DNA of 64,000 nucleotides, from assembly GCA_035327585.1 (NCBI GenBank), contig DAOLDD010000012.1, forward strand, positions 10,882 to 74,881. The letters run 5' to 3'. The notes beneath the pieces were generated by a model. It was not told the origin of the DNA. It saw only the letters and a program-made list of their open reading frames with translations, and did not search any database. This DNA is from Kiritimatiellia bacterium (GTDB taxonomy: Bacteria; Verrucomicrobiota; Kiritimatiellia; CAIVKH01). Positions within the stretch are counted from its first letter, which is position 1. The number at the start of each line of letters is the position of its first letter. A program made the translations under genes and the position numbers. Of the stretch, positions 12,617 to 48,299 are shown one piece after another.

Positions 12617-12682
12617 ACAGCAGCCGCGAAAAAAGCGCCCTCTCCCCTTGGGGGAGGGGCGGGGCGAGGGTATGCTTGGCGT

Positions 12683-15990: not shown

Positions 15991-16374
15991 ATGGCAAAGC
16001 AACCGTTGGGCATACGACTCGCGGACCACGCGAAGCAATTCATGCCGGTGCCCGCCGGCGGCAAGGTCTTCCAGGCCGGCCAGCCGGGCAACTGCATGTA
16101 CGCGGTGCGGACCGGCACCCTGCAGGTGCGCATCGGCAAGGCAGTCGTGGAGACGCTGGGCCCCGGCGATGTGTTCGGGGAGATGGCGCTGCTGAATGAA
16201 AATGAAGTCCGCTCGGCCACGGTCGTCGCCGTCACGGACAGCGAACTCGCGGTGATTGACGCGAAGCGTTTCGAATTCATGGTCAAGCATGTGCCGTCAT
16301 TCGCCATTGAATTGATGCGTATCCTCGCGGCGCGCCTGCTGGAGATGAACAAGCGCGTGCGCTCGCCGGCCTGA
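15991..16374 (+). CDS. Standalone cyclic nucleotide-binding (cNMP/Crp-like effector) domain protein, with no HTH
   Basis: 127 aa with a cNMP-binding fold signature (GDVFGEMALL, RSATVVA). Ends 3 nt before lplA. Confidence 0.6.
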   Translation: MAKQPLGIRLADHAKQFMPVPAGGKVFQAGQPGNCMYAVRTGTLQVRIGKAVVETLGPGDVFGEMALLNENEVRSATVVAVTDSELAVIDAKRFEFMVKHVPSFAIELMRILAARLLEMNKRVRSPA

Positions 16375-22185: not shown

Positions 22186-24472
22186 CCACCGCTTTGACCC
22201 TCTCCTGATCTGCGGCGGATACGTTGCCCTCGACCCAACCGTCGTCGAGGGGGTCGTCCTTGCGCGCGTTTAAATCGCGAAAGAGACGGCGCATGTCGAC
22301 AACGGCCCCGGTCATCAGCCAGACGGTTGAAATGACGCCGACGACGGAAGCGACGACCAGGTTGACGTAAAGGAAATAGCCGCTCCACCACGAAAGGGGG
22401 AGCGGGCGTATGGCATTCCAGATGAGCACGCCGACGAAGCAGATCAGAAACTGGTAGACGAAGGAATAGATGAAGACGGACCAGGAGATGATTTTGTCGC
22501 CCCGCGTGTGTTCGGGGCCGATGCCGATCAAGACGTTGTATAAATGACGCAGATTTGAGACGGCGACCGGACGGTGTTCCCCATCAATCGCGTAGAGGCC
22601 GCGGTGCAGCATCCGGTCCAAATTGTAGGGGGCCTTTCGCGTGAGCCAGGAAAAGAAGACATAGCCGGCGAATGCGGCCAGGATGGAGAGGAAATATATT
22701 TCACGCGAGTTGATGGGAAATTTTACGGGATCCATCGCCCAGACAATGTATGGGGCCAGCGGAGCGGATATGGATTTCAGGAAGGTGTCCAGCGGAAGGG
22801 TCCAGCCGCAGCGGTCGATCCAGGGGTAGACGAGGTCCGCCCATCGGCGCTGCAGGAAGATGCCGCCGACGGACAATCCGGAACCGAAGAGCAGCGCCGC
22901 CCAGGCGCCGGCGGTCGTTCCGAAACGGCTGTAGAGGCCGAACAGCATGATTGGACCCGCGCCGCCCAGCCAGATGGAGGTCGTGATGGTCAGGAACATG
23001 CTGATGTAGTCCATGTGCGCGAGGTAGAAGGAAACGAAAAAGAAAAAGAGCGCGACGCCCACGGAGGCGAAGCGTAGCCAGCGCAAGTGGGTCTTCCTGT
23101 CGAAGGGCGTGCGGCGCAACGGCATGATCACGTCCTGCACGAGGGTTGCCGAGGCATTGAAGATTCGCGAGTCGTCGGTGGACAGCATCAGCATGATGAT
23201 CAGCAGGGCGAACAGGCCCATCAGCACCGGCGGGAAGAGGTGCCCCATGGAGGCCGGCATCATCATTTGATAATAGAGCGTGCGGAATTTCTGGAAGACG
23301 GCGTTGCCTTCGCCCTCCGCGGGGATTTCCCGGTTCAGGGTATCCAGCGCGGTCGTCAGATAGATGGTGTCGGGGTTCTGCTCCCGCGAGAGTGGTTGAT
23401 CAATGCCTATCCGGTGGGGCTGTTCGGGAATGGCCCGCAGATTTTCGATGAGGTGCTCGCGAACAGAGGGATCGCTGACCACTTCACCTGCAACGCGTTC
23501 TGTGAGGGCCAGACGAACCTCCCGGGCCTTCGTGGCGAAGCGCGGGTGCGCCATCAGCGTGATGACGGAGATCGCAATGAGCAGGCACATGACGGAACTG
23601 AACCCGTTCCGCCATGCGCCGAGGATGCCGGCCATTTTCTGCTCGTGTGGGGTACGGGCGGAGCCGCTGGTATCGTTGCCGATCCAGCTCGCGCGATTGA
23701 TGATGCCGGAGAGGATGGCCACGAATAGCGCGAAGAGGTTGAAATCGCGCAGGTGGCTGATGTCCATCGGATTCAGGAAACTCTCGCCAGGCGCGCGATC
23801 CTGCATGATCGGGGCAATCTCGCCTCCCCAGGAGAACTGGGTCAGCACATACACGGTGAAGATCACGAAGATGGGATAGCTCATCAGGCCTTGAAAACAG
23901 TCGGTGATGATGAGCGAGATGCGACCCGCGGGCCAGATGACGGTCAACGACAGGACGAGGATACCCCCGATGAGCAGCCCGAAGGTCGAGAGCGGGATTC
24001 CGAGCACGGTGTATACGGGCGGCAGGCCGAGGAAGTAGATGAAGAAGCGCGCCGCCACGGCGGGACCGATGGCATTGGCGAGCATTTCGGAGATGGTGCG
24101 CAGCAGGGCGGCGAAGATGCGGAAGGAGCGGCTGTAGCGCAGTTCAAGAAATTGTCCGATGGAGAGACATCGGGTTTCCCGGAAGCGATAGATGCAGAAG
24201 CCGCTGAGGGAGAGCAGCAGGGAGATGGGGATCATGAGGCCACCCCAGAACCCGAGGGCAAATCCCGTCTGATAGCGCTCCTCCACCAACGCAACGAGCG
24301 TGATGACGCCGAGCGCGGACTCGAGGTCCCCCACCGAGATTACATAGCGGCCGGCCACGCGGCCGGCGGCCAGAAAATCGGCCACACCGCGGACATAGCG
24401 TCCGGCGTAGAGGCCCAGCGCAATGATGATGAGGATCGGAACGATGGCGATGCACCACGACAACCATGTCAT
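22172..24472 (-). CDS. Sodium:solute symporter family (SSS) transporter with a ~130-aa internal soluble insertion and extra C-terminal TM helices
   Basis: 766 aa with many TM segments and the SSS core. An atypical long hydrophilic insert (REVRLALTERVAGEVVSDPSVREHL...) sits mid-protein. Confidence 0.65.
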   Translation of the reverse strand: MTWLSWCIAIVPILIIIALGLYAGRYVRGVADFLAAGRVAGRYVISVGDLESALGVITLVALVEERYQTGFALGFWGGLMIPISLLLSLSGFCIYRFRETRCLSIGQFLELRYSRSFRIFAALLRTISEMLANAIGPAVAARFFIYFLGLPPVYTVLGIPLSTFGLLIGGILVLSLTVIWPAGRISLIITDCFQGLMSYPIFVIFTVYVLTQFSWGGEIAPIMQDRAPGESFLNPMDISHLRDFNLFALFVAILSGIINRASWIGNDTSGSARTPHEQKMAGILGAWRNGFSSVMCLLIAISVITLMAHPRFATKAREVRLALTERVAGEVVSDPSVREHLIENLRAIPEQPHRIGIDQPLSREQNPDTIYLTTALDTLNREIPAEGEGNAVFQKFRTLYYQMMMPASMGHLFPPVLMGLFALLIIMLMLSTDDSRIFNASATLVQDVIMPLRRTPFDRKTHLRWLRFASVGVALFFFFVSFYLAHMDYISMFLTITTSIWLGGAGPIMLFGLYSRFGTTAGAWAALLFGSGLSVGGIFLQRRWADLVYPWIDRCGWTLPLDTFLKSISAPLAPYIVWAMDPVKFPINSREIYFLSILAAFAGYVFFSWLTRKAPYNLDRMLHRGLYAIDGEHRPVAVSNLRHLYNVLIGIGPEHTRGDKIISWSVFIYSFVYQFLICFVGVLIWNAIRPLPLSWWSGYFLYVNLVVASVVGVISTVWLMTGAVVDMRRLFRDLNARKDDPLDDGWVEGNVSAADQERVKAVEEKK

Positions 24473-24555
24473 ACCGCGTCTCCCAACCGGGCTCTATGTC
24501 GCCCCCGGATTGATCTCCTGTTGTTGCTGCGGAACGCCGGGATCGCGGTCCACGG

Positions 24556-25521
24556 TTATGTGGCTTTGACGAAATCCAGCACTTCGCCGAGGTGTCCGTA
24601 GGCCAGTCCGACCACGGTATCCGCCGCGCCGTAGTAGATGGCGAGTCGTCCGGTTTCACGGTCCACCAAGGCCGCGCAGGGGAAGACCACGTTGGGCACG
24701 TCGCCGCAGCGTTCGTAATTCTCCTTGGGCGACATCAAATAGGGTCGGGCGCGGGCGCGCACCTTCCATGGTTCATCCAGGTCCAGCAGGGCCGCGCCAA
24801 AGGCGTAGACGAAGCCACTGCAGGAAGTCAGGACGCCATGATAGATCAGCAACCAGCCGTCCTCGGTTTCAATCGGCACGGGGCCCGCGCCAATCTTCGT
24901 GGCGTCCCATTGGCCGCCGATGGGGGACATCACATGACGATGCCGTCCCCAGAAACACAGGTCCGGACTTTCGCTGTAGAAGATGTCGCCGAACGGTGTG
25001 TGACTCGTGTCGCTGGGTCGGCTCAACATGGCGTAGCGGCCATTGATTTTGCGCGGAAAGAGAACGCCATTCCGGTTGTAGGGGAGGAAGGCGTTTTCGA
25101 GTTGATGAAATTCCTCGAAATCGTCGGTCCAACCCACGCCAATCGTGGGGCCGTGGTAGCCGTTGCACCAGGTGACATAATGCCGGCCTTCGATGGTGCA
25201 GACGCGGGGGTCGTAACCGTACTGGAAGGGGGCCGCGTCCGGATCGCTGTTCTTGAAGGTCAGCGGCTCTTTTTCAATGTTCCACTTCACGCCATCTTTG
25301 CTGAAGCCCCGGTGCAGGCGCATGTTGCGGACGCGATCATCGACGCGGAAAACGCCCGCATATCCGTCGCGAAATGGCACGAGGGCGGAATTGAAGATGC
25401 TATTTGCGCAAGGGACCTGCCGGGGTTGAATGATGGGATTGTGACGGCTGCGCCATAGAACATCATGCTCGCCGGCGGGGCGTTCCTCCCAAGGGAAAGT
25501 TCGGTGCTGTGTCGCGGTCAT
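24556..25521 (-). CDS. Glycoside hydrolase family 130 protein (beta-mannoside phosphorylase/hydrolase type)
   Basis: 321-aa 5-bladed beta-propeller GH130 signature regions ([39 protein letters not shown]). Confidence 0.75.
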
Positions 25522-25559
25522 GCGTGGGTCTCCTTGTGCATGGACCTTTTACGAATAAC

Positions 25560-25590
25560 GTATTAATACAGTCAACACTCTATTTGATAT
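25560..25590 (+). promoter_or_regulatory. Conserved operator/promoter motif, copy 1: perfect palindrome GTATTAATAC then 11 nt then TATTTGATAT
   Basis: Read in sequence. The same ~30-nt motif recurs upstream of the paralogs at 26597 and 35866. It lies in the divergent region between GH130 (-) and lectin-like gene A (+). A TATAAT box at 25618-25623. Confidence 0.55.
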
Positions 25591-25663
25591 AAATTCTTGC
25601 GTCTGCTTCATTGTGCGTATAATCTGCATCGTTGAGTGGAAGAAAAGGGAAAGGAAAGGCGTC

Positions 25664-26488
25664 ATGAATGCTCGTTTAGGCTGGGTGGTGTCGCTTGGAT
25701 TTTGCCTCAATTTGGGATTTCTGACAGGGGCGTCCGCGACGCTGATACAGGATGACTTCAGCGGGGCTTCACTCAATACGAACGTGTGGGGATCCGCGTT
25801 TACCGGTGGTGCGGCCGCTCCGTCACAGGCGGGTGGTGAATTGACCACCAGCGTGACGACCGGAGGTCAAAACCAGCGCTCACTGATCTACTCGCAGGAA
25901 ACAGATTTCAATTTTTCTCTGCAACCCATCACCATGAGCGCGGATATCGTCGCGCTGGGTGGGGAGGGGTCGGCCACGCAACCCGTGAATAACTATCTCC
26001 TGATCGGTTCGTTCGGCACGAACACGGAGGTTTTGAGCCGATACTACCCGGGTTCGGAACTTCGGCTGGGCGTTTGGCTCTCCGCGGGAGAAACCAATGG
26101 GGTTAACTATCTGGAGGTCGGCACGGTGCGCATCGGCAGCATTACGACCGCCCGCTATGAGTATTCGGGTGAACTGACGTCCATGTCCATGACGCTTTAT
26201 GGAACTTCCTATTCCGTCACGGCCGAAGGCATCAATGGGTTCAGCGTGGGGTCGGGGAATGGGTTCACGGGTACACTGGCGAATGTGAATTCCGCGGAAT
26301 ACAACGATCAATATCGTTTCGCGATGGGATCGGCCAATTCGTACCAAGGCGGGGTCACGACGGGCGCATCGGCTATTTGGGATAGCGTGAGCGTGGTGCC
26401 GGAACCCGGCACGCTGGCGTTGCTGTTGATCGGCGTGGGCGGATTGGCGGTCTCGCGAAAAATATCGCGTCGGGCGCGGCGCGAGTAA
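25664..26488 (+). CDS. PEP-CTERM-anchored secreted protein carrying a novel ~221-aa lectin-like domain (paralog A)
   Basis: Signal peptide, then the domain (LIQDDFSG...GSFGT...YYPGSEL...GVNYLEVGTVRIG...RFAMGSANSYQG), ending in a PEP-CTERM sorting signal VPEPGTLALLLIGVGGLAVSRKISRRARRE. Confidence 0.75.
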   Translation: MNARLGWVVSLGFCLNLGFLTGASATLIQDDFSGASLNTNVWGSAFTGGAAAPSQAGGELTTSVTTGGQNQRSLIYSQETDFNFSLQPITMSADIVALGGEGSATQPVNNYLLIGSFGTNTEVLSRYYPGSELRLGVWLSAGETNGVNYLEVGTVRIGSITTARYEYSGELTSMSMTLYGTSYSVTAEGINGFSVGSGNGFTGTLANVNSAEYNDQYRFAMGSANSYQGGVTTGASAIWDSVSVVPEPGTLALLLIGVGGLAVSRKISRRARRE

Positions 26489-26596
26489 TCTCAGGCAAAA
26501 GTTCCGGCGACTTTGCGTGGGTCGCTTTGTCAGTAAACACGCCTGGGGTGGAGCAGGGGTTTGGTTTCATGCTGATAGGATGGCATTGGTTTGTAC

Positions 26597-26626
26597 GTAT
26601 TAATACAGTCACTATATATTTGATAT
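26597..26626 (+). promoter_or_regulatory. Conserved operator/promoter motif, copy 2 (GTATTAATAC then 10 nt then TATTTGATAT), preceded by TTTGTAC
   Basis: Near-identical to copy 1. Upstream of gene B. A sigma54-like -24/-12 element TGGCGT-N5-ATGCA sits at 26674-26689. Confidence 0.55.
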
Positions 26627-26710
26627 TTACCTCTATCCGATTTGTGATTGTTAATGTAGTATTAGCCGGAGTGTGGCGTTTGGCATGCAAATCCCGAGGG
26701 TAATGGGGGC

Positions 26711-29341
26711 TTGAGAGACATGATTTGCAGACAAGTTGGGTGGGCGGGCTGCCTGGTATTTATTCTGGCGATCCATGCCTTTCCCTGCCCCACGGTGGAC
26801 GAATTTGGCGGGGCATCGATTGATACCGCCATCTGGGGATCGGCCAATACCGGCGCGGCGAGCGCCCCGTCGCAGACGGGCGGCAAACTGATCACCACGG
26901 TTACGGGAACCGGCCAGAATCAGCGATCCCTGATCTACTCGCTGCGCACGAATCTGAACTTCTTTGCGAGATCCCTCACCCTGAGCGCGGATATCGCCGC
27001 CTTGGGCGGAACGGGATCGGACATACGCCCGGTGAACCGCTACCTGTTGATCGGATCGTTTGGCACCGGAGCGGAAACCTTCAGCCGGTACTATCCGGGC
27101 ACCGAGTTGACGTACGGTGTGTGGCTGTCCGCGGGGCAAACCAACGGCGTAAACTATCTCGAGGTAGGAACCGTGCGGATCGGCAACGTGACCGCCATAC
27201 GGCAGGTCTATTCCGGTGTGTTGACCAACATGTCCCTGCTGCTGGATAAAACCTCATTTTCAGTAACCGCCAGCGGTACGGGTGGATTCAGCGTGGGATC
27301 GGGAAACAGCTTCACCGGCACGCTGGCAAATGTGGTCGAAGCCGACTATGCCGGCCGATTCCGTTTCGCGATGGGCGCGGCGAACTCGTATCAAGGCGCG
27401 GTCACGGCGGGCGCCTCTGCGGAATGGAACAACGTATCGATAGTGCCGACGCCCGCGCCGGTCTTGTCCGGGGACGAATTTAATGGGGTGTCGCTTAACG
27501 CGGCCCTCTGGGGGGCAACGCAAACGGGCGTCGCGGCCCCGTCAGTGGCGAACGGTAAACTGACTACACCGGTTACGACAAACAGCCAGAATCAGCGCGC
27601 GTTGATCTATTCATTGCGAACGAATCTCAATTTCTTTGCCCAATCCATCAACTTGAGTGCGGACATCGCCGCCTTGGGCGGGACGGGGTCGCAGCAATTT
27701 CCGGTGAACCGGTATTTCCTGATTGGTTCCTTTGGCACGAATACGGAAGTCCTGAGTCAGTACTATCCGGGCTCCGAGCTTCGGTTCGGCGTCTGGTTGA
27801 CGGCCGGGCAAACCAACGGCGTGAACTATCTCGAGCTCGGAACCGTGCGGATCGGCACCGTGACCGCCATCCGACAGGTCTATACCGGCGTATTGACCAA
27901 CATGTCCCTGGTCCTGAACAAAACCGCGTTTTCCGTAACCGCCAGCGGCACGGGAGGATTCAGCGTGGGATCGGGCAACAGCTTCACCGGCACGCTGGCG
28001 AACGTTTTGGAGGTCGATTACGCCGGCCGATTCCGTTTCGCATTGGGAGCGGCGAATTCGTATCAGGGCGCGGTCACCGCGGGCGCCTCGGCGGAATGGC
28101 ACAACGTATCGTTGATCTATGCGGATGATTCCAATGTGCAGGTCACGATGGACGCCGTGAGCAGCCGGTCCGTCACCAATGGTCAACCCGTCGTCTTCTC
28201 CGTCAACAGCACGAGCGCCGACTGCACCATCCCGTTGCTGAGGATGGGCGGGTTGCCATCGGGGGCCACCTTTACGGTCGTCACAAATGTTGCCGAACGG
28301 AGGGTCACGGGCACGTTCAGTTGGACGCCATCCGTGTCGCCGGGCACCCACAGCATGCGCATCTATTCATGGAATGCCAGCGGCTCAACGAGCTCCTACG
28401 CGCTGAATCTGTATGTGGACAATGTGGGCCAACCCCAAAGCGGCGGTGTGTGGAACTCGCAAACCAACTGGCGGATATCGGTCAGTGCGTTGCGCGCGCC
28501 GAGCAGCGGCAATGCGACGCTCGTGTGGCATTCCGTGACGGGCGTGACGTATGATGTGTATGCATCCTCGCTGCCGTTGGGCGGCGGCGCTTTTTGGGGA
28601 ACCCCGATAACCTCCGGCGTTGAGGCCGCGGGAGTCCTGGCCACCGCCGTGGTGGCGTCGGGCGGTTCCATGCGATTCTATCAAGTGGTGCCGCAGGGGA
28701 TGACCCGCACCGATCGGGGCGTGTGGGGCGTCGTGCGGCCATCCGTGCCAAGCACATTCCACCTGATGTCACCGCCGCTGGTGAGCACCCTCAGTTTCGC
28801 CGACGGCGGAAGTTTCGGCCAGGCCCTCTCGCTCGCGGTTCCTGTCGGCGCGAAGGTCCATATCGCGACGGATGCCACCCCAAGCTGGCTCACCCTGGTG
28901 AAGCAGTCCGGGGGAACATGGCGAACCGTCCCGGCCAATACCGAGTACACCACGCCACTGAATGCCGGCCAGGCCTTTTATCTTGAGGGTGCGTCCGGGT
29001 CCTCCCCGGCGTTCACCGGCGCGGTTCGCAGTGATGGCACGCAATCATATTCATTGGGTACCGGCATAAACCCGGTGGGCATTGCCGAAGGGCGGCCCAT
29101 TTCGCTGGCAGCGACCTTCAGCACCAGCACCATGAGCTCTCCGCCGGTGGGCAATGACAACGAGGACCTGGCCGACATTCTGGTGGTCCAGCACGCCGAC
29201 GGGACGTGGCGTCGCATTGTCCGGCTCGAGAACGGAACCTGGTGGGACATGCGATCGCGCGGAGCAACCACGGTGAATCTCCAGCCGGGCGAAGCCCTGT
29301 TCTACGTGCGCCGGGGAGGCAGCTCCAGCGTGAGCTTCTGA
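26711..29341 (+). CDS. Large secreted protein: two tandem copies of the novel lectin-like domain, then an Ig/PKD-like region and a C-terminal beta-rich domain (paralog B, no PEP-CTERM)
   Basis: TTG start at 26711 (ATG at 26720). N-terminal hydrophobic signal. Domain copies at aa 26-246 and 251-470. A putative-Ig-like segment (GQPVVFSVNSTSAD...TFSWTP...PGTHS). Confidence 0.7.
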   Translation: MRDMICRQVGWAGCLVFILAIHAFPCPTVDEFGGASIDTAIWGSANTGAASAPSQTGGKLITTVTGTGQNQRSLIYSLRTNLNFFARSLTLSADIAALGGTGSDIRPVNRYLLIGSFGTGAETFSRYYPGTELTYGVWLSAGQTNGVNYLEVGTVRIGNVTAIRQVYSGVLTNMSLLLDKTSFSVTASGTGGFSVGSGNSFTGTLANVVEADYAGRFRFAMGAANSYQGAVTAGASAEWNNVSIVPTPAPVLSGDEFNGVSLNAALWGATQTGVAAPSVANGKLTTPVTTNSQNQRALIYSLRTNLNFFAQSINLSADIAALGGTGSQQFPVNRYFLIGSFGTNTEVLSQYYPGSELRFGVWLTAGQTNGVNYLELGTVRIGTVTAIRQVYTGVLTNMSLVLNKTAFSVTASGTGGFSVGSGNSFTGTLANVLEVDYAGRFRFALGAANSYQGAVTAGASAEWHNVSLIYADDSNVQVTMDAVSSRSVTNGQPVVFSVNSTSADCTIPLLRMGGLPSGATFTVVTNVAERRVTGTFSWTPSVSPGTHSMRIYSWNASGSTSSYALNLYVDNVGQPQSGGVWNSQTNWRISVSALRAPSSGNATLVWHSVTGVTYDVYASSLPLGGGAFWGTPITSGVEAAGVLATAVVASGGSMRFYQVVPQGMTRTDRGVWGVVRPSVPSTFHLMSPPLVSTLSFADGGSFGQALSLAVPVGAKVHIATDATPSWLTLVKQSGGTWRTVPANTEYTTPLNAGQAFYLEGASGSSPAFTGAVRSDGTQSYSLGTGINPVGIAEGRPISLAATFSTSTMSSPPVGNDNEDLADILVVQHADGTWRRIVRLENGTWWDMRSRGATTVNLQPGEALFYVRRGGSSSVSF
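26786..28120 (+). repeat. Intragenic tandem duplication: two ~660-bp direct repeats (26786-27448 and 27461-28120) encoding the lectin-like domain
   Basis: Protein copies are about 70-75% identical and the DNA is visibly similar over long stretches (e.g. ggcgtaaactatctcgaggtaggaaccgtgcggatcggcaacgtgaccgcc vs ggcgtgaactatctcgagctcggaaccgtgcggatcggcaccgtgaccgcc). Confidence 0.8.
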
Positions 29342-29343
29342 TC

Positions 29344-30033
29344 GTGAGATTGCATGCTTCCATAATCCGCATGGCCGGAACGCTGGTGGTGTGGGCGCTG
29401 ACCGCCGCCGGGGCTTCCGCCGCCGTGCTGGCGATTCACGAGTTCAATACGAACGATCAAAACTGGGAGGCCGCCGGCGACATGGCCGCCGTTGCGCACT
29501 CCGCATTCAGTGGCGGCTCGTTGCGTGGCGACTTCAATTCACAGGGCATGATTTTCACTCCGGAGACCGGCTCGTTTCACCAGGATACGGACCCCAATTT
29601 CCTGGGTGTCTATCCGGGGCCATTCCTGATCACCGGATTTTCGTTTGATTTATACGCGGACAGCGTGATTCCTCTAGATGTGAACCTCCGGTTGCTGTCC
29701 GGTGTGAACGCTTATTTCATCACCCTCAATATCTCCGGGCGCAACTGGACCGGATGGGAAAACTTCACCGTGGCCCTGGACGATCCTCTGTGGCAGGGCA
29801 ATCCCGCCATTCTGAACACGGTGACCGCCGTGGAGGTTCAGGTTGCGCGTGGTTCCGCGGCTGCGCAATCCTTCTATCTCGATAACTTTCAGACGCTGAG
29901 TGACGAATTTATCCCGGGCGCACTCGTGCCCGAACCGAACACTCTGATGATGTTCTTGAACGCTGGACTTCTATTGGCTGTTCTGCGGCGCCGCGCCATG
30001 CGCAAACGTCCCGCGTCCGAGGAGGCGGTATGA
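29344..30033 (+). CDS. PEP-CTERM-anchored secreted protein (second paralog family, member 1)
   Basis: GTG at 29344 gives a positively charged N-region plus hydrophobic core (ATG at 29371 is the alternative). C-terminal PEP-CTERM VPEPNTLMMFLNAGLLLAVLRRRAMRKRP. Confidence 0.65.
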   Translation: MRLHASIIRMAGTLVVWALTAAGASAAVLAIHEFNTNDQNWEAAGDMAAVAHSAFSGGSLRGDFNSQGMIFTPETGSFHQDTDPNFLGVYPGPFLITGFSFDLYADSVIPLDVNLRLLSGVNAYFITLNISGRNWTGWENFTVALDDPLWQGNPAILNTVTAVEVQVARGSAAAQSFYLDNFQTLSDEFIPGALVPEPNTLMMFLNAGLLLAVLRRRAMRKRPASEEAV

Positions 30034-30812
30034 GATTCCTGTTTTGCATTATTCTGGCGATGGTCCTCGTCCTGACGGTACGGAGAGCGGATTGCGGTGA
30101 GGCGCATGTGGAGGATTTTAGTGACGGCGCCAACACCAGCGATGCCAGTCTCGCATACGGCATCGGTTCGTGGACGTTCACCGGCGGGACCGCGCGGGTC
30201 AGGATGACCAAAACGGCCCCGTATGCCTATCCGGATGTGGCGTCACTGAGTCCGAAGGCCTCCGCTTTCGCAGGTGACTGGATGGAGTCGGGTCACGAGT
30301 TGGTCGGCTTCAAATTTATGGCCGGTTCGCCCGCGCCCTCCCATCTCTATCTCGAACTGCTCGCGTCCGCAGGACGGCTTTACCGGAAAATATTCCCGGT
30401 GCCCGAGCCGGGGGAGTGGACCACCTTCATGGCCTCGATCACGGATGGTGACGGAGGGGGCTGGATTGCGGTGGAGGGAACCATCGGCGAGTTCCAGGAC
30501 GCGTTGCGCAACGTGGAGCGCGTTTCGGTCAATATCCAACGCGCCGGTGCGCTGGCGGTCGAGCACGCCGTTGACGATTTCTTCCTCGACCGGCTTCCCC
30601 GCCAGGTGGATGCCCGCATTACGAGCGCCGGCGCGCAATTCTCGCTGGATGCCCTGCAGTCGGGAGCTCTTTACACCTTGCAAGCCAGCGCATCGCTGAC
30701 CGGTCCATGGCAGGATGTGCAGACGATGGCCGCGACAAACCGGCTCCAGCATCTGGAGCTTCCGCTTTTGCCGGATGCCTCCGTAAAGTATTATCGCCTG
30801 TTGTCTCCGTGA
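30030..30812 (+). CDS. Secreted protein paralogous to the preceding gene (EDFSDG... / ...VERVSVNIQRAGALAVEHAVDDFFLD) but without PEP-CTERM
   Basis: Start overlaps the upstream stop. Signal peptide MRFLFCIILAMVLVL. Shares the N-terminal (H/E)(E/D)F..(N/D) motif and the C-terminal V.V.(V/I).R...A......D.F motif with 29344..30033. Confidence 0.55.
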   Translation: MRFLFCIILAMVLVLTVRRADCGEAHVEDFSDGANTSDASLAYGIGSWTFTGGTARVRMTKTAPYAYPDVASLSPKASAFAGDWMESGHELVGFKFMAGSPAPSHLYLELLASAGRLYRKIFPVPEPGEWTTFMASITDGDGGGWIAVEGTIGEFQDALRNVERVSVNIQRAGALAVEHAVDDFFLDRLPRQVDARITSAGAQFSLDALQSGALYTLQASASLTGPWQDVQTMAATNRLQHLELPLLPDASVKYYRLLSP

Positions 30813-30895
30813 ATGTTTCACCGGTCACCATCGACGGAAATCCGTCGGCCCACGTATTACCCATCGCCTTGGCGCCGCGACGGGTCCTGTGTCGC

Positions 30896-31582
30896 GTGCG
30901 CTGCAAGTCGCGTGGCGGGTTGTCGCATAACGGATTCACATTGATTGAGTTGCTGGTCGTCATTGCGATCATCGCGGTGTTGATGGCCATTATCGTGCCG
31001 TCCGTCCAAAGTGCGCTGGAGCGCGCGCGCGCCATTGCGTGCACCAGTCAATTGCGGCAAATCGGCCAGGCGTTCTTTAGCTATGCCGGCACGTACGACG
31101 CCCTGCCCGCGCCCGCGGGGCACGTTGCAGGCGGAGGCATGCCCGATCCTTCGTTCTGGTATTCATCGCTCGGTCCTTTTTTGGGGCTCGGATGGAGCCG
31201 GGGGAGTGGACCGCGACCCGGGGACCTGGCCTTTCAGAATACCAAACTGGCTTGCCCAACTTATGGCGGGAATCGCCTGGGCTATGCCTACAATGAGTTC
31301 CTGCCCCCCTCGCACCGGTCTGAATGGATACCGAAAGTCACACCCGCCAAGTGGTTCCTGGATTCTTCCTCCCGATCAACCGAACGTCTCCTGGTCGCGG
31401 ATGCGACAAGCTGGTACACGGGAGGCCCGGACATGATCACGTATGGCGACTCCTCCCTCCTCGACTGGAACCGCCACAACCGGTCGGCCAACCTGCTTTT
31501 TCTTGATGGCCATGTGCAAAAGCATGACAAGGCCTTCATCGCGACGAACCGGCTGACGCTCTTCTTTTTCGATGTATTGTGA
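30896..31582 (+). CDS. DUF1559-type protein with a prepilin-type N-terminal cleavage/methylation domain
   Basis: GTG start. GFTLIELLVVIAIIAVLMAIIVPS pilin-like N-terminus, LRQIGQAFFSYA motif and a C-terminal LLFLDGHV motif, characteristic of DUF1559 proteins. Confidence 0.7.
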   Translation: MRCKSRGGLSHNGFTLIELLVVIAIIAVLMAIIVPSVQSALERARAIACTSQLRQIGQAFFSYAGTYDALPAPAGHVAGGGMPDPSFWYSSLGPFLGLGWSRGSGPRPGDLAFQNTKLACPTYGGNRLGYAYNEFLPPSHRSEWIPKVTPAKWFLDSSSRSTERLLVADATSWYTGGPDMITYGDSSLLDWNRHNRSANLLFLDGHVQKHDKAFIATNRLTLFFFDVL

Positions 31583-33407: not shown

Positions 33408-33454
33408 TCACAGGCTGAGTGGTGGGTTCGGGTGGCGTTTGGCGAAGAGCTTGC

Positions 33455-34762
33455 TTACCTGTGCATGCCGTCGGGCGGTACGATCGCCTGATGCCGGGTC
33501 AGGAGCTGTCGAAGGTCCTTCAGTGGAACGTCTCCGATCGGGATGTGCCGCTGTGCGGCAATCGCGGTCACCGCGCCGACCGCCTGACCCATGGCCATGC
33601 AGGATGCTTGCACACGGTAGGCTGAATTCGCCAGCGGGTCACCGCAGGCCGTGCGTCCCGCGACGATGAGATTTTTGGCGCCCTTGGGAATCATCGCGCG
33701 CAGGGGAATGGTGGGGAAGGTGCCGTGCGCCAATGGACGAATGTCCACCCCGTCGCCGTCCGCGCGGTGCAGGTCAATCGGATAGAAGCTGTAGCAGACG
33801 GCATCCTCCCAAAGGCGTCCGCTGGTGTAATCGCCCACGGTGATTTCCACCTCGCCCTCAATCACGCCGGTATCGCGCACCCCGCATTCCGGCGCGCACC
33901 GGTCGATCTCGGTGTGTTCGAGTCCCGGTTGTTGCCGGAGAAAACGAAGCAGGCGCAGTAAGGCCGCCCGTGCGCGCTGTTCCAGTGCCGTGCGCCCGGC
34001 GCTGGTGTGGCCTTCAGCGTCCGGCACATGCATCTTGTTCTCGCCGCGCGAACGCAGAAACCATTCCAGCGCGCGTGGATCGTGTGCGCCCGCGTCGGAC
34101 GCGTGAACCCGTCCGGTGGCGAGGGCTTCCGCCCATGCGCGATTGAGTGCATCATAATCCAAGCCTTCAGGATCATAACCATTCAGGCGGAACATCAGGG
34201 TGGCGGGTTGCGGCGAAGCGGTCGGACGCCTCACCGGATGGCCGGCCAGCGCGATGCCGTTCGCGTCGCCGGTGGCGTCAATAACCATCCGGGCCGTCGC
34301 GGTTCGGAGTCCCTCCTTGACGGCCAGTTGAACGCGCCAATCCCCGTTCGCTTCCTGGTCGAGCGCAACGGGCATCGCGTGATAGAGAACTTCGACTCCG
34401 GCCTGCACCAAAGCTTCGTCGATCAGAGCGGCATAAACCGCCGTATTCACCTTCACCTGCAGGAGCCAGTGCGGCTGGTCCCACTTCTGGAAGTCCGGCA
34501 GTTTGCCGCCAACTTCGCGGACCGCGCGTTCGACCAATTCCCATCCGATGCCCGCGATGATCTGGCGGCCCCAGGCATGGAACAGGCCGGGCAGGTTCAC
34601 GCCCGCGCTGGTGGTGGTGCCGCCGGGCTGTGCGGTCTTTTCCACCAGCAGGGTTTTCGCGCCCGCCCGGGCGGCTTGCAGGGCGGCGGTGGCGCCGGCT
34701 GGTCCGGCCCCCAGGACAAGCACATCGACGCGCTCGCTGGTGAGGCGTTCCGCCGGATTCAT
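33455..34762 (-). CDS. FAD-dependent oxidoreductase (PF12831-like)
   Basis: VDVLVLGAGPAGATAALQAARAGAKTLLVEK dinucleotide-binding motif. The family is commonly found next to GH genes. Confidence 0.7.
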   Translation of the reverse strand: MNPAERLTSERVDVLVLGAGPAGATAALQAARAGAKTLLVEKTAQPGGTTTSAGVNLPGLFHAWGRQIIAGIGWELVERAVREVGGKLPDFQKWDQPHWLLQVKVNTAVYAALIDEALVQAGVEVLYHAMPVALDQEANGDWRVQLAVKEGLRTATARMVIDATGDANGIALAGHPVRRPTASPQPATLMFRLNGYDPEGLDYDALNRAWAEALATGRVHASDAGAHDPRALEWFLRSRGENKMHVPDAEGHTSAGRTALEQRARAALLRLLRFLRQQPGLEHTEIDRCAPECGVRDTGVIEGEVEITVGDYTSGRLWEDAVCYSFYPIDLHRADGDGVDIRPLAHGTFPTIPLRAMIPKGAKNLIVAGRTACGDPLANSAYRVQASCMAMGQAVGAVTAIAAQRHIPIGDVPLKDLRQLLTRHQAIVPPDGMHR

Positions 34763-35850
34763 GCAAGATTTCCGTTCTGTATGACGGCCTCCAGGCGTTG
34801 GCGTGAGCCGTCCGGTTCAAACGTTGCCGGAATATAGTGCACCACCGGCGGCGTTTCATTTCTTCTCATCGCGCGCAGGGTCGCGGAAGCCTGGGTGAGG
34901 AAGTCGCGCACGTCATAGCCCAGCCGGTCGACGGGTACGGCGCAGGGCAGCACCTGTGGCCAGTTGCAATGAGCCACGACCTGGACATCGACGGGGATAT
35001 TGACGCCCGCGCTCAACACGCCGGAGAGCACGTATTCCATCAAGTTGTCGTCAGCAATGATCAATCCGTCGGGCCGGGTCTCCGGCGCGGCGGAGAAAAG
35101 CAGCTGCATGATGCGCGTGGCAATTTCGGGATGCTCGAGCGCCACCATCTGCAACCAGCGATCATGGGTCTCCATTCCGCTGCGCAGAATCTCCTCCTTG
35201 AATCGCTCCATCGGTTCAACCAGCGGTTGATGAGCCACCGCGATTCGACGGCAGCCGCGCGTTCGCAGCCGTTCAATCGAGAGGGAGATGAATGAATCGG
35301 TGTCCGTATCGATCAGGGGCAGGTCCGGAGTCGTGGCGTGCAGCAGGCGGACTTTCGGGATGTCAAATTCGCCGAAATCGGGCGTCTCAGCGCTGAGATA
35401 CGGGTCGGCGACCAATACCAACCCCGCGATTTTCATGCTGGTGATGTCGCGGGTTAGCTGCTGATAAGCCGGATTGTCGACGTGCCGGTCGACGTCGAAA
35501 TAGAAATCCCATTGTACGTCGGTGGCATTGCTGGCCGCCGCCGCCACTTCCTTGAGCGCCGTCCAGAAGCGATTGGTCCGGCCGGTCGTTACGGGGAAAA
35601 CCAGGGCAAATTTATGCAGATGAGGCGGGTGTGACGTAACCCGTGTGCCGCGTCGTCCATCCGTCACGACGAAACCGTCCTGGCTCAGTTTGCGCAATAC
35701 TTGTTGCACCGTGGAACGCGAGACGGAGAACTCCCGCATCAGTTCGTCGCAGGTCGGGAAGCGCTCCCCGGGTGGATAGGTGCCGTTGGTCAGCCGGTCC
35801 AGCACCTCCTTGGCCAGCATCGCCCTTCTCGTTGGTTTCTTGGGTTTCAT
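34759..35850 (-). CDS. AraR-type transcriptional regulator (GntR-family wHTH fused to a LacI/PBP1-type sugar-binding domain)
   Basis: N-terminal GntR HTH (FPTCDELMREFSVSRSTVQQVLRKL), a C-terminal periplasmic-binding-protein-like effector domain. Divergent from lectin-like paralog C. Confidence 0.7.
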   Translation of the reverse strand: MKPKKPTRRAMLAKEVLDRLTNGTYPPGERFPTCDELMREFSVSRSTVQQVLRKLSQDGFVVTDGRRGTRVTSHPPHLHKFALVFPVTTGRTNRFWTALKEVAAAASNATDVQWDFYFDVDRHVDNPAYQQLTRDITSMKIAGLVLVADPYLSAETPDFGEFDIPKVRLLHATTPDLPLIDTDTDSFISLSIERLRTRGCRRIAVAHQPLVEPMERFKEEILRSGMETHDRWLQMVALEHPEIATRIMQLLFSAAPETRPDGLIIADDNLMEYVLSGVLSAGVNIPVDVQVVAHCNWPQVLPCAVPVDRLGYDVRDFLTQASATLRAMRRNETPPVVHYIPATFEPDGSRQRLEAVIQNGNLA

Positions 35851-35865
35851 AGGGTCTGATATATT

Positions 35866-35897
35866 GTACTAATACAATGAGATCGAATTTTGATACA
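35866..35897 (+). promoter_or_regulatory. Conserved operator/promoter motif, copy 3 (ATTGTACTAATACAAT near-palindrome then TTTTGATACA)
   Basis: 16-bp near-perfect palindrome (2 mismatches) resembling copies 1 and 2 and GntR/AraR-type operators (GT-N6-AC). In the divergent region between the AraR-type regulator and paralog C. Confidence 0.5.
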
Positions 35898-35982
35898 TAA
35901 TGCTTGTCTGTTGATTTTATTCCGCATACGATGCGTCCAAGTGAGTGGAACCTGTTCAGGTAGTTGGGAAAGGGTTGGCTTT

Positions 35983-36735
35983 ATGAATGCGTTTTTCCTC
36001 AGGGATCTCCTGCGTGGAGGTTGTCTTAACCTTGTATTCCTGACCCTGACCTCTGCAAGCCTTATTCAGGATGACTTTAATGGGAGTATGCTTGATACGA
36101 ATCAGTGGGGAACCGCATATACGGGGGGCGCGGCCGCTCCAGTACAGACCGGGGGCGGGTTGATGGTGCATGTGGAGACCAATTCGCAGAATCAACGGGC
36201 CCTGGTCTTCTCGACGCGAACGGACCTCGATTTTACCGCCAGGCCGATCACCATGGCGGCGACGATTTCCGCACTGGGCGGTGCGGGTGCGGTGCAGTGG
36301 CCCGTGAATCGCTATCTCTTAATAGGTTCCTTTGGAACCCAACCAGAAATTCAGAGTCGCTACTATCCCGGCTCGGAACTTCCCATGGGCGTATGGCTGG
36401 CTGCCGGGCAAACCAACGGCATGAATTATCTGGAAGTGGGTACGGTGCGTCTTGGGCGGGTGGAAACCACCCGGGAAATTTATCAAGGCGTATTGACCGC
36501 CATGTCGCTGACGTTGCATGGGAACACGTATTCCGTATCCGCCAGCGGCATCGATGGGTTCAGCGTGGGGGCCGACAACCGCATCGTGGGTGTCCTGGCG
36601 AATATTCACACCGAGGAATACAACGGCCATTTTCGTTTCGCGATGGGAGCCGCGAACTCTTTCCAGGGCGCGGTCTCCGAAGGCGCGTCGGTGGTTTGGG
36701 ACAGCGTGACGGTGAACTCGGCGCTTGCACCGTAG
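35983..36735 (+). CDS. Secreted protein with the novel lectin-like domain (paralog C), no PEP-CTERM anchor
   Basis: ATG at 35983 (Met 32 of the track ORF). Signal-like N-terminus. The domain ends in ...DSVTVNSALAP with no sorting signal. Confidence 0.7.
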   Translation: MNAFFLRDLLRGGCLNLVFLTLTSASLIQDDFNGSMLDTNQWGTAYTGGAAAPVQTGGGLMVHVETNSQNQRALVFSTRTDLDFTARPITMAATISALGGAGAVQWPVNRYLLIGSFGTQPEIQSRYYPGSELPMGVWLAAGQTNGMNYLEVGTVRLGRVETTREIYQGVLTAMSLTLHGNTYSVSASGIDGFSVGADNRIVGVLANIHTEEYNGHFRFAMGAANSFQGAVSEGASVVWDSVTVNSALAP

Positions 36736-36790
36736 CGGCTCCTGCCCGCCATGCTTGCGCAAATTAATGCCACGAAGGGACGCGTGCACA

Positions 36791-39700
36791 ATGAGACAGA
36801 TCGGTATCGCGGGAAAGAATGGATGGCGGCTTGCCGCACTGGGCTTGCTGTGTGTGATGGCCATGACGCCCGATAATTCGTCGATCGCCGCCGCGCAAGT
36901 GGCCGTCCGCAACCCAGGATGGATGACCTCTCCCCGGGGCGAGGTCGAGGGGTGGATGCTTCACTGGTGCCGCCGCACCATCGATGACGAGGGCCGCACT
37001 GTAATCCATCTGCCGGATCCGTCTGGCGTGCCATTCGCCAAACTCTCCCAGCGTATCCCGATTGATGATCCGGCGATTCTCGCCCTGACCGTAACCGCCA
37101 CCGTGCGGGCCCGGCCACCCGATGCCGCGCAAGAGAGCCCCTTGGAATCCGCGCCCAGCCTGTGCATCTACTATCATGGCGCGAATACGGGATGGTCCTA
37201 CAAGGAGGTCCTCTGGCCGGCGGGACGTGCCGGCGCGAAGAAGGTGATTCCGCGCGATGTGAACTGGCAAACGGTTTCGTTCGATCTGCCGCGCCCACCC
37301 GGGGCCGTTCAGGTGGAGATTGCGCTTGAGGCCAAGACGGGGTCCTTCGGATTGGACGTAGCGGAAATGACGATCACGGCCCTGCGGTCTTCTGATGCCA
37401 GCAACCAGCCGGTGGCTGCGGAACCCCAAGGTCCGGTCGACCGCAGCAACTTGCTCGCCGGGTCCATCACCCGATTCGAGGGCGGCTCCGCCGGTTGGCA
37501 GGTATTCGTGCTGCCTCATTATCCGGCCGTTCAGCTCGAGCCTGAATATGATCGCGCGCAGCCGGGGGAGGGTCAGGCCAGCATCCGTATCCCTCCAGGT
37601 GCGGGCCTCAATTCCATGCCCGTGCTGTTGGCCAAAGGAAAGGGAATCCGGACGTTATCCTTCCTCGCCCGTGCGGAACAGGCTGCGGAGCTGGTGGTCC
37701 GACAGGGCTATAACCATGGCAGCCTTCAGGATGTCCGGGTGCCGGTCACACGTGAGTGGACGCGTGTCCATGCCACGTATCCTGCTTCGAACAATCAGGA
37801 CGCACCCTTTTACTTCATCGAAAACCGCATGGTCGAAGGCCGCGGCACCGATGTTTATATTGATGCCATCAGTTTGAGCGAAGGCGGAACCACGGAATAC
37901 ATTGAGCCGCCGGCCGAGTTGATGCTGGTCCGGCAACCCAATGGTGTGGTGCGGGCGGATCTTTTGCTGGCCGGGGGAGTTGAGAATCCTGGTGCCTGGA
38001 CCTGGACGTTGGAGGAAGTCGACATCGAGTCCCGGCTATTGGCCCATGGGCTCGTCGCCTGGAAAGCGGAAGGGCCGCAACGCTACTCGGCCACGATTGA
38101 TCATCCCACGGATCACGGCATGTACCGGATCGTGCTGTTGCGGGATGAAGACCGGTCCATCGAGCCCATGCAGGAGTTGCTTATCGCGCAAGCTTCGTTC
38201 GCAACGTTGCCGGAATTCCGGGATGGAGGAGCGCCGGTCACGCTGGGCGTTCACGCGCACCACAACTGGGCGCGACAGGGCTCCCCGCCGCGTACGGTGT
38301 ATCATCATCCGGATTGGGAAACCTTTCTGCGCAGCCTGCGCACGATGGGCATTGAGTGGATGCGCTTTCATGGCGGTCGCGATAATCCGACCATCCTGTC
38401 CTTTGCCGCGCCCGATGGGCCCCGGAAGGACTATCTGCTCGCGCATGATCTCTTGAAGCCCTACCAGGACACCGGATTTCGTCTGATGGCCGTTCTCGAT
38501 GTGGGTTTCGGCAAATTGTTCCGTCGCGAGCCCTGGTTTGCTGCACGGGAAACCCACGGGGAATGGGGCCGCCACGCCCTGCCGGAAGACATGAGCGTGT
38601 GGACGGATTTTGTGAGGGCCATGGCCACGGCGTACGCCGACGTGTTTGATGCCTGGGAAGTAGTGAACGAACCCAACGGAACCATGCAGGCGAGCGACTA
38701 TATGCCCTTGCTGAAGGAGGCGTATGCGGTGCTGAAAGAGGTCGTGCCCGACAAACCCGTGTTGGGCGTTTGCGCCACGGCGGATTATGAATCCAGTCTC
38801 GACGGATTCGTCGAACAGTGTTTTGCGCTCGGCGCGGCGGACGCCATGGATATCTTGTCCTTCCATCCCTATGTCGGCAACGACACCCCGGAAGCGTCCT
38901 TGGTCCTCATGCAAAACACGGCCCGGCTGCTGGAGCGAAGCGGCGCCCAAAAGGGATTGTGGAACACCGAGAAGGGCTGGTCCACCATGCCCACCTATAT
39001 CTCCCACCAGGCACGCGGTACGTCCAAGCGCGCCGACTCCGCCATGGGTTCGGTCGGCGTTTCCGCGGTCCTCGGGGCGGCCTACAATGTGCGCAATATT
39101 CTCCACAGCAGCCGCGTTGGCGTGAATCATTATTTCATCTACAGCGGGATGAACCCCCAATTCGGTTGGCAGGCGAAGGGCCACTTCGGACCCGCCTTCG
39201 AATACGACGGAACCATGGGCCCCCTTTATTTCATGGTGGGCACGATCCAGCGCGTGCTGCAGGAGGCCACCTTCCGGGAAGCCATTACCTTGCGCGACGG
39301 CGGCCTCTGGGCCTATCTGTATGACTTTCCCGACAAGCGCGTCCTCGCCGCGCTCTGGACCAACGAGCGGAAGGAACCGACGGATCTTCGGTCCGAATCC
39401 GTATCCCGCGTGCCCGCGCGGGGCTGGGATGGCATGGGGCGCCCGCTGGACCTCTCGGCGCAAGGCGTCGCGGCCGGGCCGATGCCGACGTACTTCGTAT
39501 GGGACGACGCAGAGACTGGTGACATCGCGAACATGATCACCAACATGACCTGGGAGGCGGTGCCCCGTTTTCAAGTGCGGGTCGGACCCGCTCGGGATGG
39601 CTCACCCTGCTTTGAAGTTCGCGCAGCGAATCCGCTTGAAACCTCGATTCCCGCCCTTTGGGTTCCGGACGTCGGGCCGCCGCTTTCTCAGGACGTTCCG

Positions 39701-40474
39701 CCCGGCAGCGACCTAAGCATCGTTTCCGGTCTTCAGGGTGGCGACAAACACGCCACGCTGGACGGCATGCTCAAGATCGGCGCGACCGGGTTGACCCGCA
39801 TCCAGCAACGCAACCGGTTTCACGCGCTGATGATCGCGCCGTCGATGGATGCGGAAGAAGCCCCCCTCGTTATATCCAGCGCGGAGAGCGTCACCTTCGG
39901 CATGTTGCCGGACGGTTTCCTGGCCACCCATCCGATCAAACTCTGGCTCCGCGCGACGACCAACGGCCTGCGCATCGCATTCGATGTGCCCAAGCCGGAT
40001 CAGACGTACATGCAGATGCAGGTCGGCGCATCGCAGATCAACATGGATAGCGTTGAATTGTTTATGCGCACCCGGCCCGATGACGTGCAATGGGCCGGAG
40101 GTGGCTACCAGCGCGGCGATATTAAAATCAGTCTGGCCCAGGATCATCGGGACCCCGCGAAAAAATCCGTTCAAGTTGATCAAGGCGCGGACGCGATCCG
40201 CACGGAACAGATCGAGTTCCGTTTCGCCGCGCGCACCGTGTCGCCGGGCTATACCGGCACCGTCTTTATTCCCTGGACCGCCCTGCCGCTGCTGGAGAGT
40301 ACGCCGCCTGCAACCTTGGGGTTTGATCTGAGTTTCAATATGGCCGATGTCGCCGGCGTCCGCCGTGCGCAGGTCACCTGGTCCGGTCCGGGCTTCAACT
40401 GGCTCGATCCCAGCGGCCTCGGCGTCCTGCGCTTGACGCCCGCGCCGCGCACCAACGGGATCAGCGGACCGTGA
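36791..40474 (+). CDS. Large secreted multidomain glycoside hydrolase: N-terminal CBM-like beta-sandwich modules, a clan GH-A (beta/alpha)8 catalytic domain and a C-terminal CBM9-like module
   Basis: Signal peptide after the ATG at 36791. The NEP motif (EVVNEPN), typical of GH-A acid/base catalysts, a second conserved Glu region (WNTEKGW). The C-terminal segment resembles family-9 carbohydrate-binding modules. Confidence 0.6.
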   Translation: MRQIGIAGKNGWRLAALGLLCVMAMTPDNSSIAAAQVAVRNPGWMTSPRGEVEGWMLHWCRRTIDDEGRTVIHLPDPSGVPFAKLSQRIPIDDPAILALTVTATVRARPPDAAQESPLESAPSLCIYYHGANTGWSYKEVLWPAGRAGAKKVIPRDVNWQTVSFDLPRPPGAVQVEIALEAKTGSFGLDVAEMTITALRSSDASNQPVAAEPQGPVDRSNLLAGSITRFEGGSAGWQVFVLPHYPAVQLEPEYDRAQPGEGQASIRIPPGAGLNSMPVLLAKGKGIRTLSFLARAEQAAELVVRQGYNHGSLQDVRVPVTREWTRVHATYPASNNQDAPFYFIENRMVEGRGTDVYIDAISLSEGGTTEYIEPPAELMLVRQPNGVVRADLLLAGGVENPGAWTWTLEEVDIESRLLAHGLVAWKAEGPQRYSATIDHPTDHGMYRIVLLRDEDRSIEPMQELLIAQASFATLPEFRDGGAPVTLGVHAHHNWARQGSPPRTVYHHPDWETFLRSLRTMGIEWMRFHGGRDNPTILSFAAPDGPRKDYLLAHDLLKPYQDTGFRLMAVLDVGFGKLFRREPWFAARETHGEWGRHALPEDMSVWTDFVRAMATAYADVFDAWEVVNEPNGTMQASDYMPLLKEAYAVLKEVVPDKPVLGVCATADYESSLDGFVEQCFALGAADAMDILSFHPYVGNDTPEASLVLMQNTARLLERSGAQKGLWNTEKGWSTMPTYISHQARGTSKRADSAMGSVGVSAVLGAAYNVRNILHSSRVGVNHYFIYSGMNPQFGWQAKGHFGPAFEYDGTMGPLYFMVGTIQRVLQEATFREAITLRDGGLWAYLYDFPDKRVLAALWTNERKEPTDLRSESVSRVPARGWDGMGRPLDLSAQGVAAGPMPTYFVWDDAETGDIANMITNMTWEAVPRFQVRVGPARDGSPCFEVRAANPLETSIPALWVPDVGPPLSQDVPPGSDLSIVSGLQGGDKHATLDGMLKIGATGLTRIQQRNRFHALMIAPSMDAEEAPLVISSAESVTFGMLPDGFLATHPIKLWLRATTNGLRIAFDVPKPDQTYMQMQVGASQINMDSVELFMRTRPDDVQWAGGGYQRGDIKISLAQDHRDPAKKSVQVDQGADAIRTEQIEFRFAARTVSPGYTGTVFIPWTALPLLESTPPATLGFDLSFNMADVAGVRRAQVTWSGPGFNWLDPSGLGVLRLTPAPRTNGISGP

Positions 40475-47341: not shown

Positions 47342-47378
47342 GGAATCGTTTCTTTGGGCGGGAGGCTCGGCGCCGCCA

Positions 47379-48137: not shown

Positions 48138-48299
48138 TGTCGTACACTATTCGCTAATGCCGTACATACTCGGATGGGGAGGCGTCGGGGTCAAGGGGGA
48201 AAGTTATCGACGGGCACCGACTTCGGGCGGTGATGTCACGATGAGCATGCCCCGGTTTACCGTGAACGAGCTTGGCTTCACGGCGCAGTCCGCGGCATA

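Follow-up and report, generated by a model that had tools for sequence, protein, structure and literature searches.

Introduction

The regulator AraR of Bacillus subtilis is a chimera of a GntR winged helix-turn-helix (HTH) domain and a LacI/GalR-type sugar-binding domain, with a 16-bp consensus site (ATTTGTACGTACAAAT) whose core (T/A)NG motifs stand 6 nt apart in ORA1 and 8 nt apart in ORR3 (PMC1950556, PMC3592433). More generally, operators of the GntR family are dyad-symmetric and follow the signature (N)x-GT-N(0-15)-AC-(N)x (PMC1950556). The putative operator described here, from a 64-kb stretch of DNA of a Kiritimatiellia bacterium (the whole stretch is hereafter called the window), resembles the AraR system in the chimeric architecture of the adjacent regulator, in a palindromic site of the GT...AC type, in a copy near the regulator's own promoter (ORR3 in B. 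subtilis), apparently in the core spacing (TTG-N8-CAA, the spacing of ORR3), and in the presence at several promoters of two sites in helical phase (PMC1950556, PMC3592433). The ara boxes of B. subtilis are ORA1/2, ORE1/2 and ORR3. The present operator differs, however, in the sequence itself, and the protein similarity to AraR is weak (E 7e-5, HTH only). No arabinose genes lie nearby, the neighbours being instead GH78, GH130, FAD oxidoreductases and lectin-like PEP-CTERM proteins. Furthermore, the AraR sites lie at or after +1, whereas the present sites lie 5' of the putative target core promoters, and AraR has a second full operator ~40 bp away where we find a lone half-site at 20-21 bp.

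FadR of Escherichia coli acts as a repressor where its site overlaps the promoter, and as an activator of fabA where it binds immediately 5' of the -35 hexamer, a position-dependent dual action of the kind that is proposed below for the present regulator. Among solved structures in the PDB, FadR is the best match of the regulator HTH (E about 1e-6), better than the AraR N-terminal domain, but it carries an all-helical FCD effector domain in place of the periplasmic-binding-protein fold found here, and its operator differs in sequence and spacing (TGGTNNNACCA type). In E. coli NanR on (GGTATA)3, a GntR-type protein occupies GTAT-containing hexamers and binds more than two half-sites cooperatively, although these are three tandem direct repeats, as opposed to an inverted pair plus a distal half-site, and the effector domain is another one (PMC8012715).

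The palindrome in the window

The palindrome GTAYTAATAC is present in three copies in the window (Table 1), whose GC content is ~63%. Matches to the 10-mer with at most one mismatch numbered three, where chance alone predicts 0.11, and in 100 shuffles of the 64-kb window the count never reached three. A position weight matrix (PWM), built solely from sites of other organisms and then run over the window, returned the same copies as its top three matches (21.8-25.7 bits; the next window match scored 15.7), and its maxima in 20 shuffled windows were 8.8-17.2 bits. Direct reading confirmed the three positions that an earlier sequence-only reading had given, as well as its description of copy 3 as a 16-bp near-palindrome; the core of this copy is GTACTAATAC (35866-35875), 15 bp from the regulator start codon. 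The same reading had placed the motif 80-120 bp before the start codons of the paralogs, which holds for P1 (104 bp) and P3 (117 bp), but copy 2 stands slightly farther from its ATG (123 bp). It had also noted TTTGTACGTA before copy 2; this stretch is indeed present (26590-26599, directly 5' of and running into the copy), but it is kept neither at the orthologous P2 site nor at the other copies.

Table 1. Coordinates of the motif, the inferred promoters and the adjoining genes in the window, and of orthologous motif sites in related loci (L numbers).
Feature	Position	Strand	Remarks
GH130 gene	24556..25521	-	divergent from copy 1; start codon 38 bp from palindrome
Palindrome copy 1	25560..25569		GTATTAATAC; between GH130 (-) and P1 (+)
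Box 2 of copy 1	25586..25591	+	GATATA; third half-site-like element
P1 core promoter, inferred	25597..25625	+	TTGCGT, 17 nt, TAATCT; position and spacing kept across 13 sites
P1	25664..26488	+	lectin-like domain and PEP-CTERM anchor
Palindrome copy 2	26597..26606		GTATTAATAC; between P1 stop and P2 start
Box 2 of copy 2	26622..26627	+	GATATT
P2 core promoter, inferred	26634..26662	+	TATCCG, 17 nt, TAGTAT; weak -35
P2	26720..29341	+	873 aa; at least 2 tandem lectin-like domains
FAD-dependent oxidoreductase	33455..34762	-	same arrangement in L014
Regulator	34759..35850	-	363 aa; GntR winged HTH and LacI-type periplasmic-binding-protein sensor; divergent from copy 3
Palindrome copy 3	35863..35878		ATTGTACTAATACAAT; 16-bp near-palindrome, one mismatch
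Box 2 of copy 3	35892..35897	+	GATACA
P3 core promoter, inferred	35904..35932	+	TTGTCT, 17 nt, TACGAT
P3	35983..36735	+	250 aa; ConA-like fold
CBM9-containing protein	36725..40474	+	1249 aa; directly 3' of P3
Copy 1 ortholog	L002 9892		identical sequence
Copy 2 ortholog	L002 18104 / L012 17162
Copy 3 orthologs	L012 9979; L008 1044; L011 796; L014 7073; L017

The fit to the GntR-family signature that had been claimed for the motif is borne out: GTATTAATAC reads as GT-N6-AC with a perfect dyad, and all 10 columns hold at least 1.6 bits across 13 sites. The suggested resemblance to AraR boxes proved loose, as the consensus ATTTGTACGTACAAAT itself does not occur and its single match in the window (26589-26604, copy 2) has three mismatches; because that match uses TTTGTACGTA, which is absent from the P2 ortholog (S2_P2) and from all other sites, we treat it as coincidental. 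Counted by eye, (T/A)NG motifs 8 nt apart are found on the left in 12 of 12 sites and on the right in 7 of 12, a count in which AT-rich flanks favour chance matches.

A second box (GATAYN; box 2) follows every palindrome copy, TTTGATAT or TTTGATAC starting 12-13 nt on. Its consensus, TGATACA, nearly repeats the right half-site (TAATACA), from which it is displaced by 20-21 bp, or two helical turns, in the 3' direction, on the same helix face. Farther downstream, TTGNNN-17-TANNNT is conserved in both sequence and spacing and was for this reason taken as the core promoter of the paralogs: the -35 TTG is found in 11-13 and the -10 TA...T in 12-13 of the 13 sites, with a 17-nt spacer. Exceptions occur: window copy 1 has 5 nt between box 2 and its -35 hexamer, the spacer of L014b is 18 nt long, and at the DUF1559 site (S2_DUF1559) CATTTT replaces TANNNT. 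A promoter scanner set to 9 of 12 consensus positions called none of the three window sites. Relative to the inferred promoter, box 2 would lie at about -47 to -42 and the centre of the palindrome at about -68. In the aligned sites, box 2 (RATAYA) keeps a constant distance of 6 nt to the TTGNNN-17-TANNNT that follows it. TTTGATAT, which the sequence-only reading had counted as part of the palindromic operator, is instead an element of its own, a third half-site at about -45.

Other readings of these boxes did not hold. If box 2 were an extended -10 (TGnTAYAWW) and the palindrome covered a -35, the critical last T would be lacking at 10 of 13 sites, whereas the downstream TANNNT keeps it at 12 of 13; this reading was rejected. 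The sequence fits neither a sigma54 (-24/-12) nor a CRP/FNR (TGTGA-N6-TCACA) reading.

A G-rich element (GAGTGGAA, GGAGTGTGG or GTGTGGGAA) was seen close to the predicted start of transcription, 5-10 nt 3' of the putative -10, in 7 of the 11 promoters compared; in the window it lies at 25634-25641, 26668-26676 and 35943-35950, and it is also present at Sp2 sites in L002 and L012.

Conservation across Kiritimatiellia

In contigs that encode homologs of the regulator or of the paralogs, we found 13 non-redundant sites with the same module in at least six related Kiritimatiellia taxa. The shared architecture comprises the palindrome (T/A)nGTATTAATACnn, 15-16 nt, RATAYA, 6 nt, TTGNNN, 17 nt and TANNNT (the first gap is 13-14 nt if counted to nnRATAYA). 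Over the 13 sites, the columns of the palindrome carry 1.6-2.0 bits, ATA of box 2 2.0 bits, the -35 TTG 1.4-2.0 bits, and T, A and the final T of the -10 1.6-2.0 bits, against ~0-1 bit per column in the gaps and spacers. That the boxes are near-invariant and the spacers scrambled indicates that the element is under selection. Orthologs of the paralogs are 64-85% identical in protein, and since neutral DNA would be randomised between genes whose proteins are just 60-85% identical, the pattern is that of a phylogenetic footprint and not of a duplication relic. In ~220 kb (the window plus related loci), all matches with 0-1 mismatches are intergenic and have a single orientation relative to the downstream gene.

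In a sister species, all five sites and the regulator are found in one ~27 kb cluster (29.9-kb contig, L003 and L012); the sites additional to those of the window precede a 276-aa paralog, from whose motif-bearing promoter the exosortase EpsH gene diverges, and a DUF1559 gene (L002 3721). A profile scan of genome contigs with the paralog alignment recovered one distant locus only (L001, 46% identity, a Verrucomicrobiota MAG), which is without the motif. Sixteen metagenome matches to GTATTAATAC-N15/16-RATAYA-N5-CTTG were dismissed as chance; their contigs have 30-44% GC and are without regulator or paralog homologs.

Variants of the arrangement were noted in two taxa. L014 carries the whole promoter module twice in tandem between the regulator and the CBM9 gene (6950-7190), the regulator-proximal copy with a degenerate palindrome (GTATTAAGAT). 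In L011, a second near-palindrome (GGTATTAATAAC, 885-894) lies in the leader of the P3-like gene, ~20 nt 5' of the ATG; this taxon could thereby have an additional operator on the downstream side.

Lectin-like paralogs and neighbouring genes

P1, P2 and P3 are paralogs with 60% protein identity; P2 shares 81% identity with its sister-species ortholog. Modelled with AlphaFold, P3 is a beta-sandwich (pLDDT 88, pTM 0.85) whose best Foldseek/PDB matches are legume lectins, ERGIC-53/VIP36 and beta-1,3-glucanases, that is, a ConA-like lectin/glucanase fold, so that the label "lectin-like", given earlier from the sequence, is borne out at fold level by the predicted structure. The family is small (18 clusters among 5.8 billion proteins). 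P3 and the CBM9 protein probably form one operon; the gene order with the CBM9 protein recurs in L012, and in L014 it recurs without a P3-type paralog between the regulator and the CBM9 gene. On the GH130 side of copy 1, the palindrome is directly adjoined by a TTGACT hexamer, and the sister species shows the same. The second lectin-like domain of P2 lies at ~27443-28117. A 275-aa ORF 3' of P2 (29206-30033, +), whose C-terminus weakly resembles PEP-CTERM (NCBIfam E 1e-4, which does not reach the cut-off), may be a further exosortase substrate within the P2 operon.

Several other genes were observed. An IclR-family regulator (HTH_IclR and IclR_C; 47379-48137, -) is hidden under an over-extended ORF call (44759-47557), that of an 860-aa gene with its real start at ~47341. 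The 860-aa protein has no Pfam domain and is 92% identical between the window (44762-47341, -) and the sister species (L002 974-3556), the neighbours being 52-86% identical; the sister species has a motif site from which its gene diverges, whereas in the window the IclR gene is inserted at that place. The region upstream of the IclR gene (48138-48299), shared with a GH78 rhamnosidase gene (start 48300), contains the direct repeat CGTACA...CGTACA. An AraC-family regulator (53414-54313, -) adjoins a ThuA-like gene (54291-55016, +), with which it appears to form a separate sugar-utilisation unit, and a stand-alone cNMP-binding protein of 127 aa is encoded at 15991-16374. The sister-species cluster contains a glycyl-radical enzyme with its activase (L002 4616-7578) and the exosortase EpsH (11999-12877), none of which is found in the 64-kb window.

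The regulator and its association with the motif

The regulator matches PF00392 (9.5e-15, residues 11-71) and PF13377, Peripla_BP_3 (3.5e-10, residues 193-341), and its C-terminal domain matches LacI cores in the PDB; the public gene call begins at Met11. What had been called an AraR-type regulator divergent from copy 3 thus has the GntR HTH/LacI-type architecture and the divergent position, but not orthology to AraR, and no NCBIfam equivalog reaches its cut-off with this protein. The start of the FAD oxidoreductase gene overlaps the regulator stop, and the two are therefore probably co-transcribed. Regulator orthologs (P0019-P0022) show 100, 81, 74 and 66% identity; the next homolog has 43%, and all others have at most 39%. 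The recognition helix SRSTVQQV is nearly conserved in the four motif-carrying orthologs (SRSTVQHV in P0021); the 43% homolog has SRATLQQV, and its locus (L016) is without the palindrome. A search of L016 for a co-varying operator gave no clear candidate: GGTATGTAATACC occurs there singly, and the upstream region is degenerate. A scan of metagenome contigs with the regulator protein gave no relatives.

In every taxon with enough sequence, six in all (window, L012/L013, L008-L010, L011, L014/L015 and L017), the regulator gene and a promoter with the motif point away from each other. The palindrome stands 6-24 bp before the start codon of the regulator in five of the six; L014 has its full palindrome at 100 bp and the degenerate copy at 14 bp. 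Five aligned intergenic regions between regulator and P3 contain no further conserved block. No transcription factor besides the regulator was found in the ~27 kb cluster of the sister species, and homologs of the window's IclR and AraC genes are absent from every other motif locus, all of which contain the GntR-HTH/LacI-type gene. As the only transcription factor that travels with the motif, the regulator is a well-supported candidate for the site. From these comparisons we conclude that the element is a conserved cis-regulatory site and that the adjacent regulator is most likely its binder, being by far the best candidate; this is the level of evidence usual for an operator-regulator assignment by comparative genomics.

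Proposed mode of action and alternative explanations

We consider it fairly probable that the palindrome is the operator of the divergent GntR-HTH/LacI-type regulator, that box 2 is contacted together with it, and that the regions so bound are bidirectional control regions. A regulator dimer would sit on the dyad (T/A)nGTATTAATACnn, and a further subunit or dimer on box 2 (TGATAYA), 6 bp from the -35 hexamer. The palindrome lies 6-45 bp from the start codons of the divergent genes (regulator, GH130, exosortase and 860-aa genes; L014 excepted). Because 6-24 bp is too short for a promoter plus leader, the palindrome must fall within the promoter or transcribed leader of the regulator gene, which is the position of a repressor or of autoregulation; the divergent genes (the regulator operon, GH130 and, in the sister species, the exosortase) would be repressed or autoregulated. 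Copy 2 of the window and its ortholog, which have no divergent gene, keep the full element, suggesting that it also acts on the promoters of the paralogs. For these promoters the preferred reading, slightly more likely than not, is that the regulator blocks the UP/-35 region until a sugar ligand releases it. About -68, however, is not a classical repressor position and would be unusual for an AraR-like repressor. Activation from about -68/-45 is a more tentative reading, and it is a serious alternative, since box 2 keeps a constant 6 bp to the -35 and the core hexamers are weak. Both readings could be accommodated by a dual role like that of FadR; that the regulator, from one three-half-site element, represses the divergent catabolic, regulator and exosortase genes and at the same time activates the PEP-CTERM lectin-like proteins from about -68/-45, depending on the position of its site, is possible but not likely.

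The geometry of the promoters bears also on the question of which protein binds. Sites at about -68/-45, a box fixed 6 bp from the -35 and repeats 20-21 bp apart are typical of AraC/XylS-type activators, which would read the direct repeat TAATACA-N14-TGATACA abutting the -35; several of the core promoters are weak, and an AraC-family gene is present in the window. Binding by such an activator, or by a global regulator, unlinked to the locus and with the GntR-HTH/LacI-type gene as a mere member of the regulon, is nevertheless rather unlikely: conservation is equally strong in both halves of the palindrome, although a direct-repeat reader has no need of the left one, the AraC and IclR genes of the window do not accompany the motif elsewhere as the GntR-HTH/LacI-type gene always does, and a site is found in the upstream region of this very gene in six taxa.

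It is improbable that the AT-rich block merely sets promoter strength, as an UP element or through intrinsic curvature, with no dedicated regulator. Such an element has no need of a 10-12 bp dyad that stays perfect from species to species when the equally AT-rich gap between the boxes drifts freely, nor would it be expected in a motif limited to one gene cluster and to three sites in 64 kb, even though an A/T-rich block at about -40 to -75 does stand 5' of a conserved sigma70-like core. Box 2 with its spacer (RATAYAaaannC) also resembles the A-rich proximal UP subsite.

Copies 1 and 2 are tandem neighbours with 17 identical nt (ACGTATTAATACAGTCA), as might be left by duplication or gene conversion among paralog promoters. 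A passive, functionless relic of this kind is very improbable and appears largely refuted already by the comparative data, given that the motif is conserved across species at orthologous and non-orthologous promoters amid scrambled spacers, and that it also stands before the non-paralogous DUF1559 gene (L002 3721) and, in L014, directly before the CBM9 gene. An RNA-level element (a leader or riboswitch) in place of a DNA site is hardly credible, since it has nothing more in its favour than a position 5' of coding sequences, and the element is 5' of the conserved -35/-10, a stable hairpin would require a longer and less AT-rich dyad, and 24000-38000 gave no Rfam match at E<=1.

The candidate regulon and its significance

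With the GntR-HTH/LacI-type regulator as the preferred binder, the motif may define a regulon. The sequence-only reading had proposed one that controls the lectin-like family; the motif does precede all three paralogs, but the set of candidate targets is wider and takes in the GH130 operon and the operon of the regulator and FAD oxidoreductase, as well as, in the sister species, the exosortase and a DUF1559 prepilin-like gene. In the window, the candidate regulon would thus consist of P1, the P2 operon, P3 with the 1249-aa CBM9 protein, GH130, and the regulator with the FAD oxidoreductase. The P2 operon probably runs through a DUF1559 prepilin-like gene and a six-hairpin GH to ~33407, and an SSF-like transporter gene 3' of GH130 perhaps also belongs to the regulon. 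The cluster contains no arabinose (ara) genes; its neighbouring GH78 rhamnosidases, fucose/arabinose-type isomerase and FAD/Fe-S oxidoreductases suggest a locus for a deoxyhexose-containing polysaccharide.

To our knowledge, no cis-regulatory motif or regulon is known for this phylum of uncultured polysaccharide degraders, and a literature search returned no paper naming both Kiritimatiellota and PEP-CTERM proteins. The concept is standard GntR-type operator biology, in a little-studied phylum. What the site provides is a handle, consisting of a putative 12-bp operator, a candidate regulator and a defined set of targets, which include a previously unannotated family of ConA-like lectins with PEP-CTERM anchors and GH130, GH78 and CBM9 genes. 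It could serve to mark out regulons for polysaccharide utilisation in metagenome-assembled genomes, and for heterologous expression or induction of these genes. If the dual role should prove true, it would couple, in Kiritimatiellia, the sensing of products of a rhamnose- or fucose-type polysaccharide to the exosortase-dependent display of a new lectin family.
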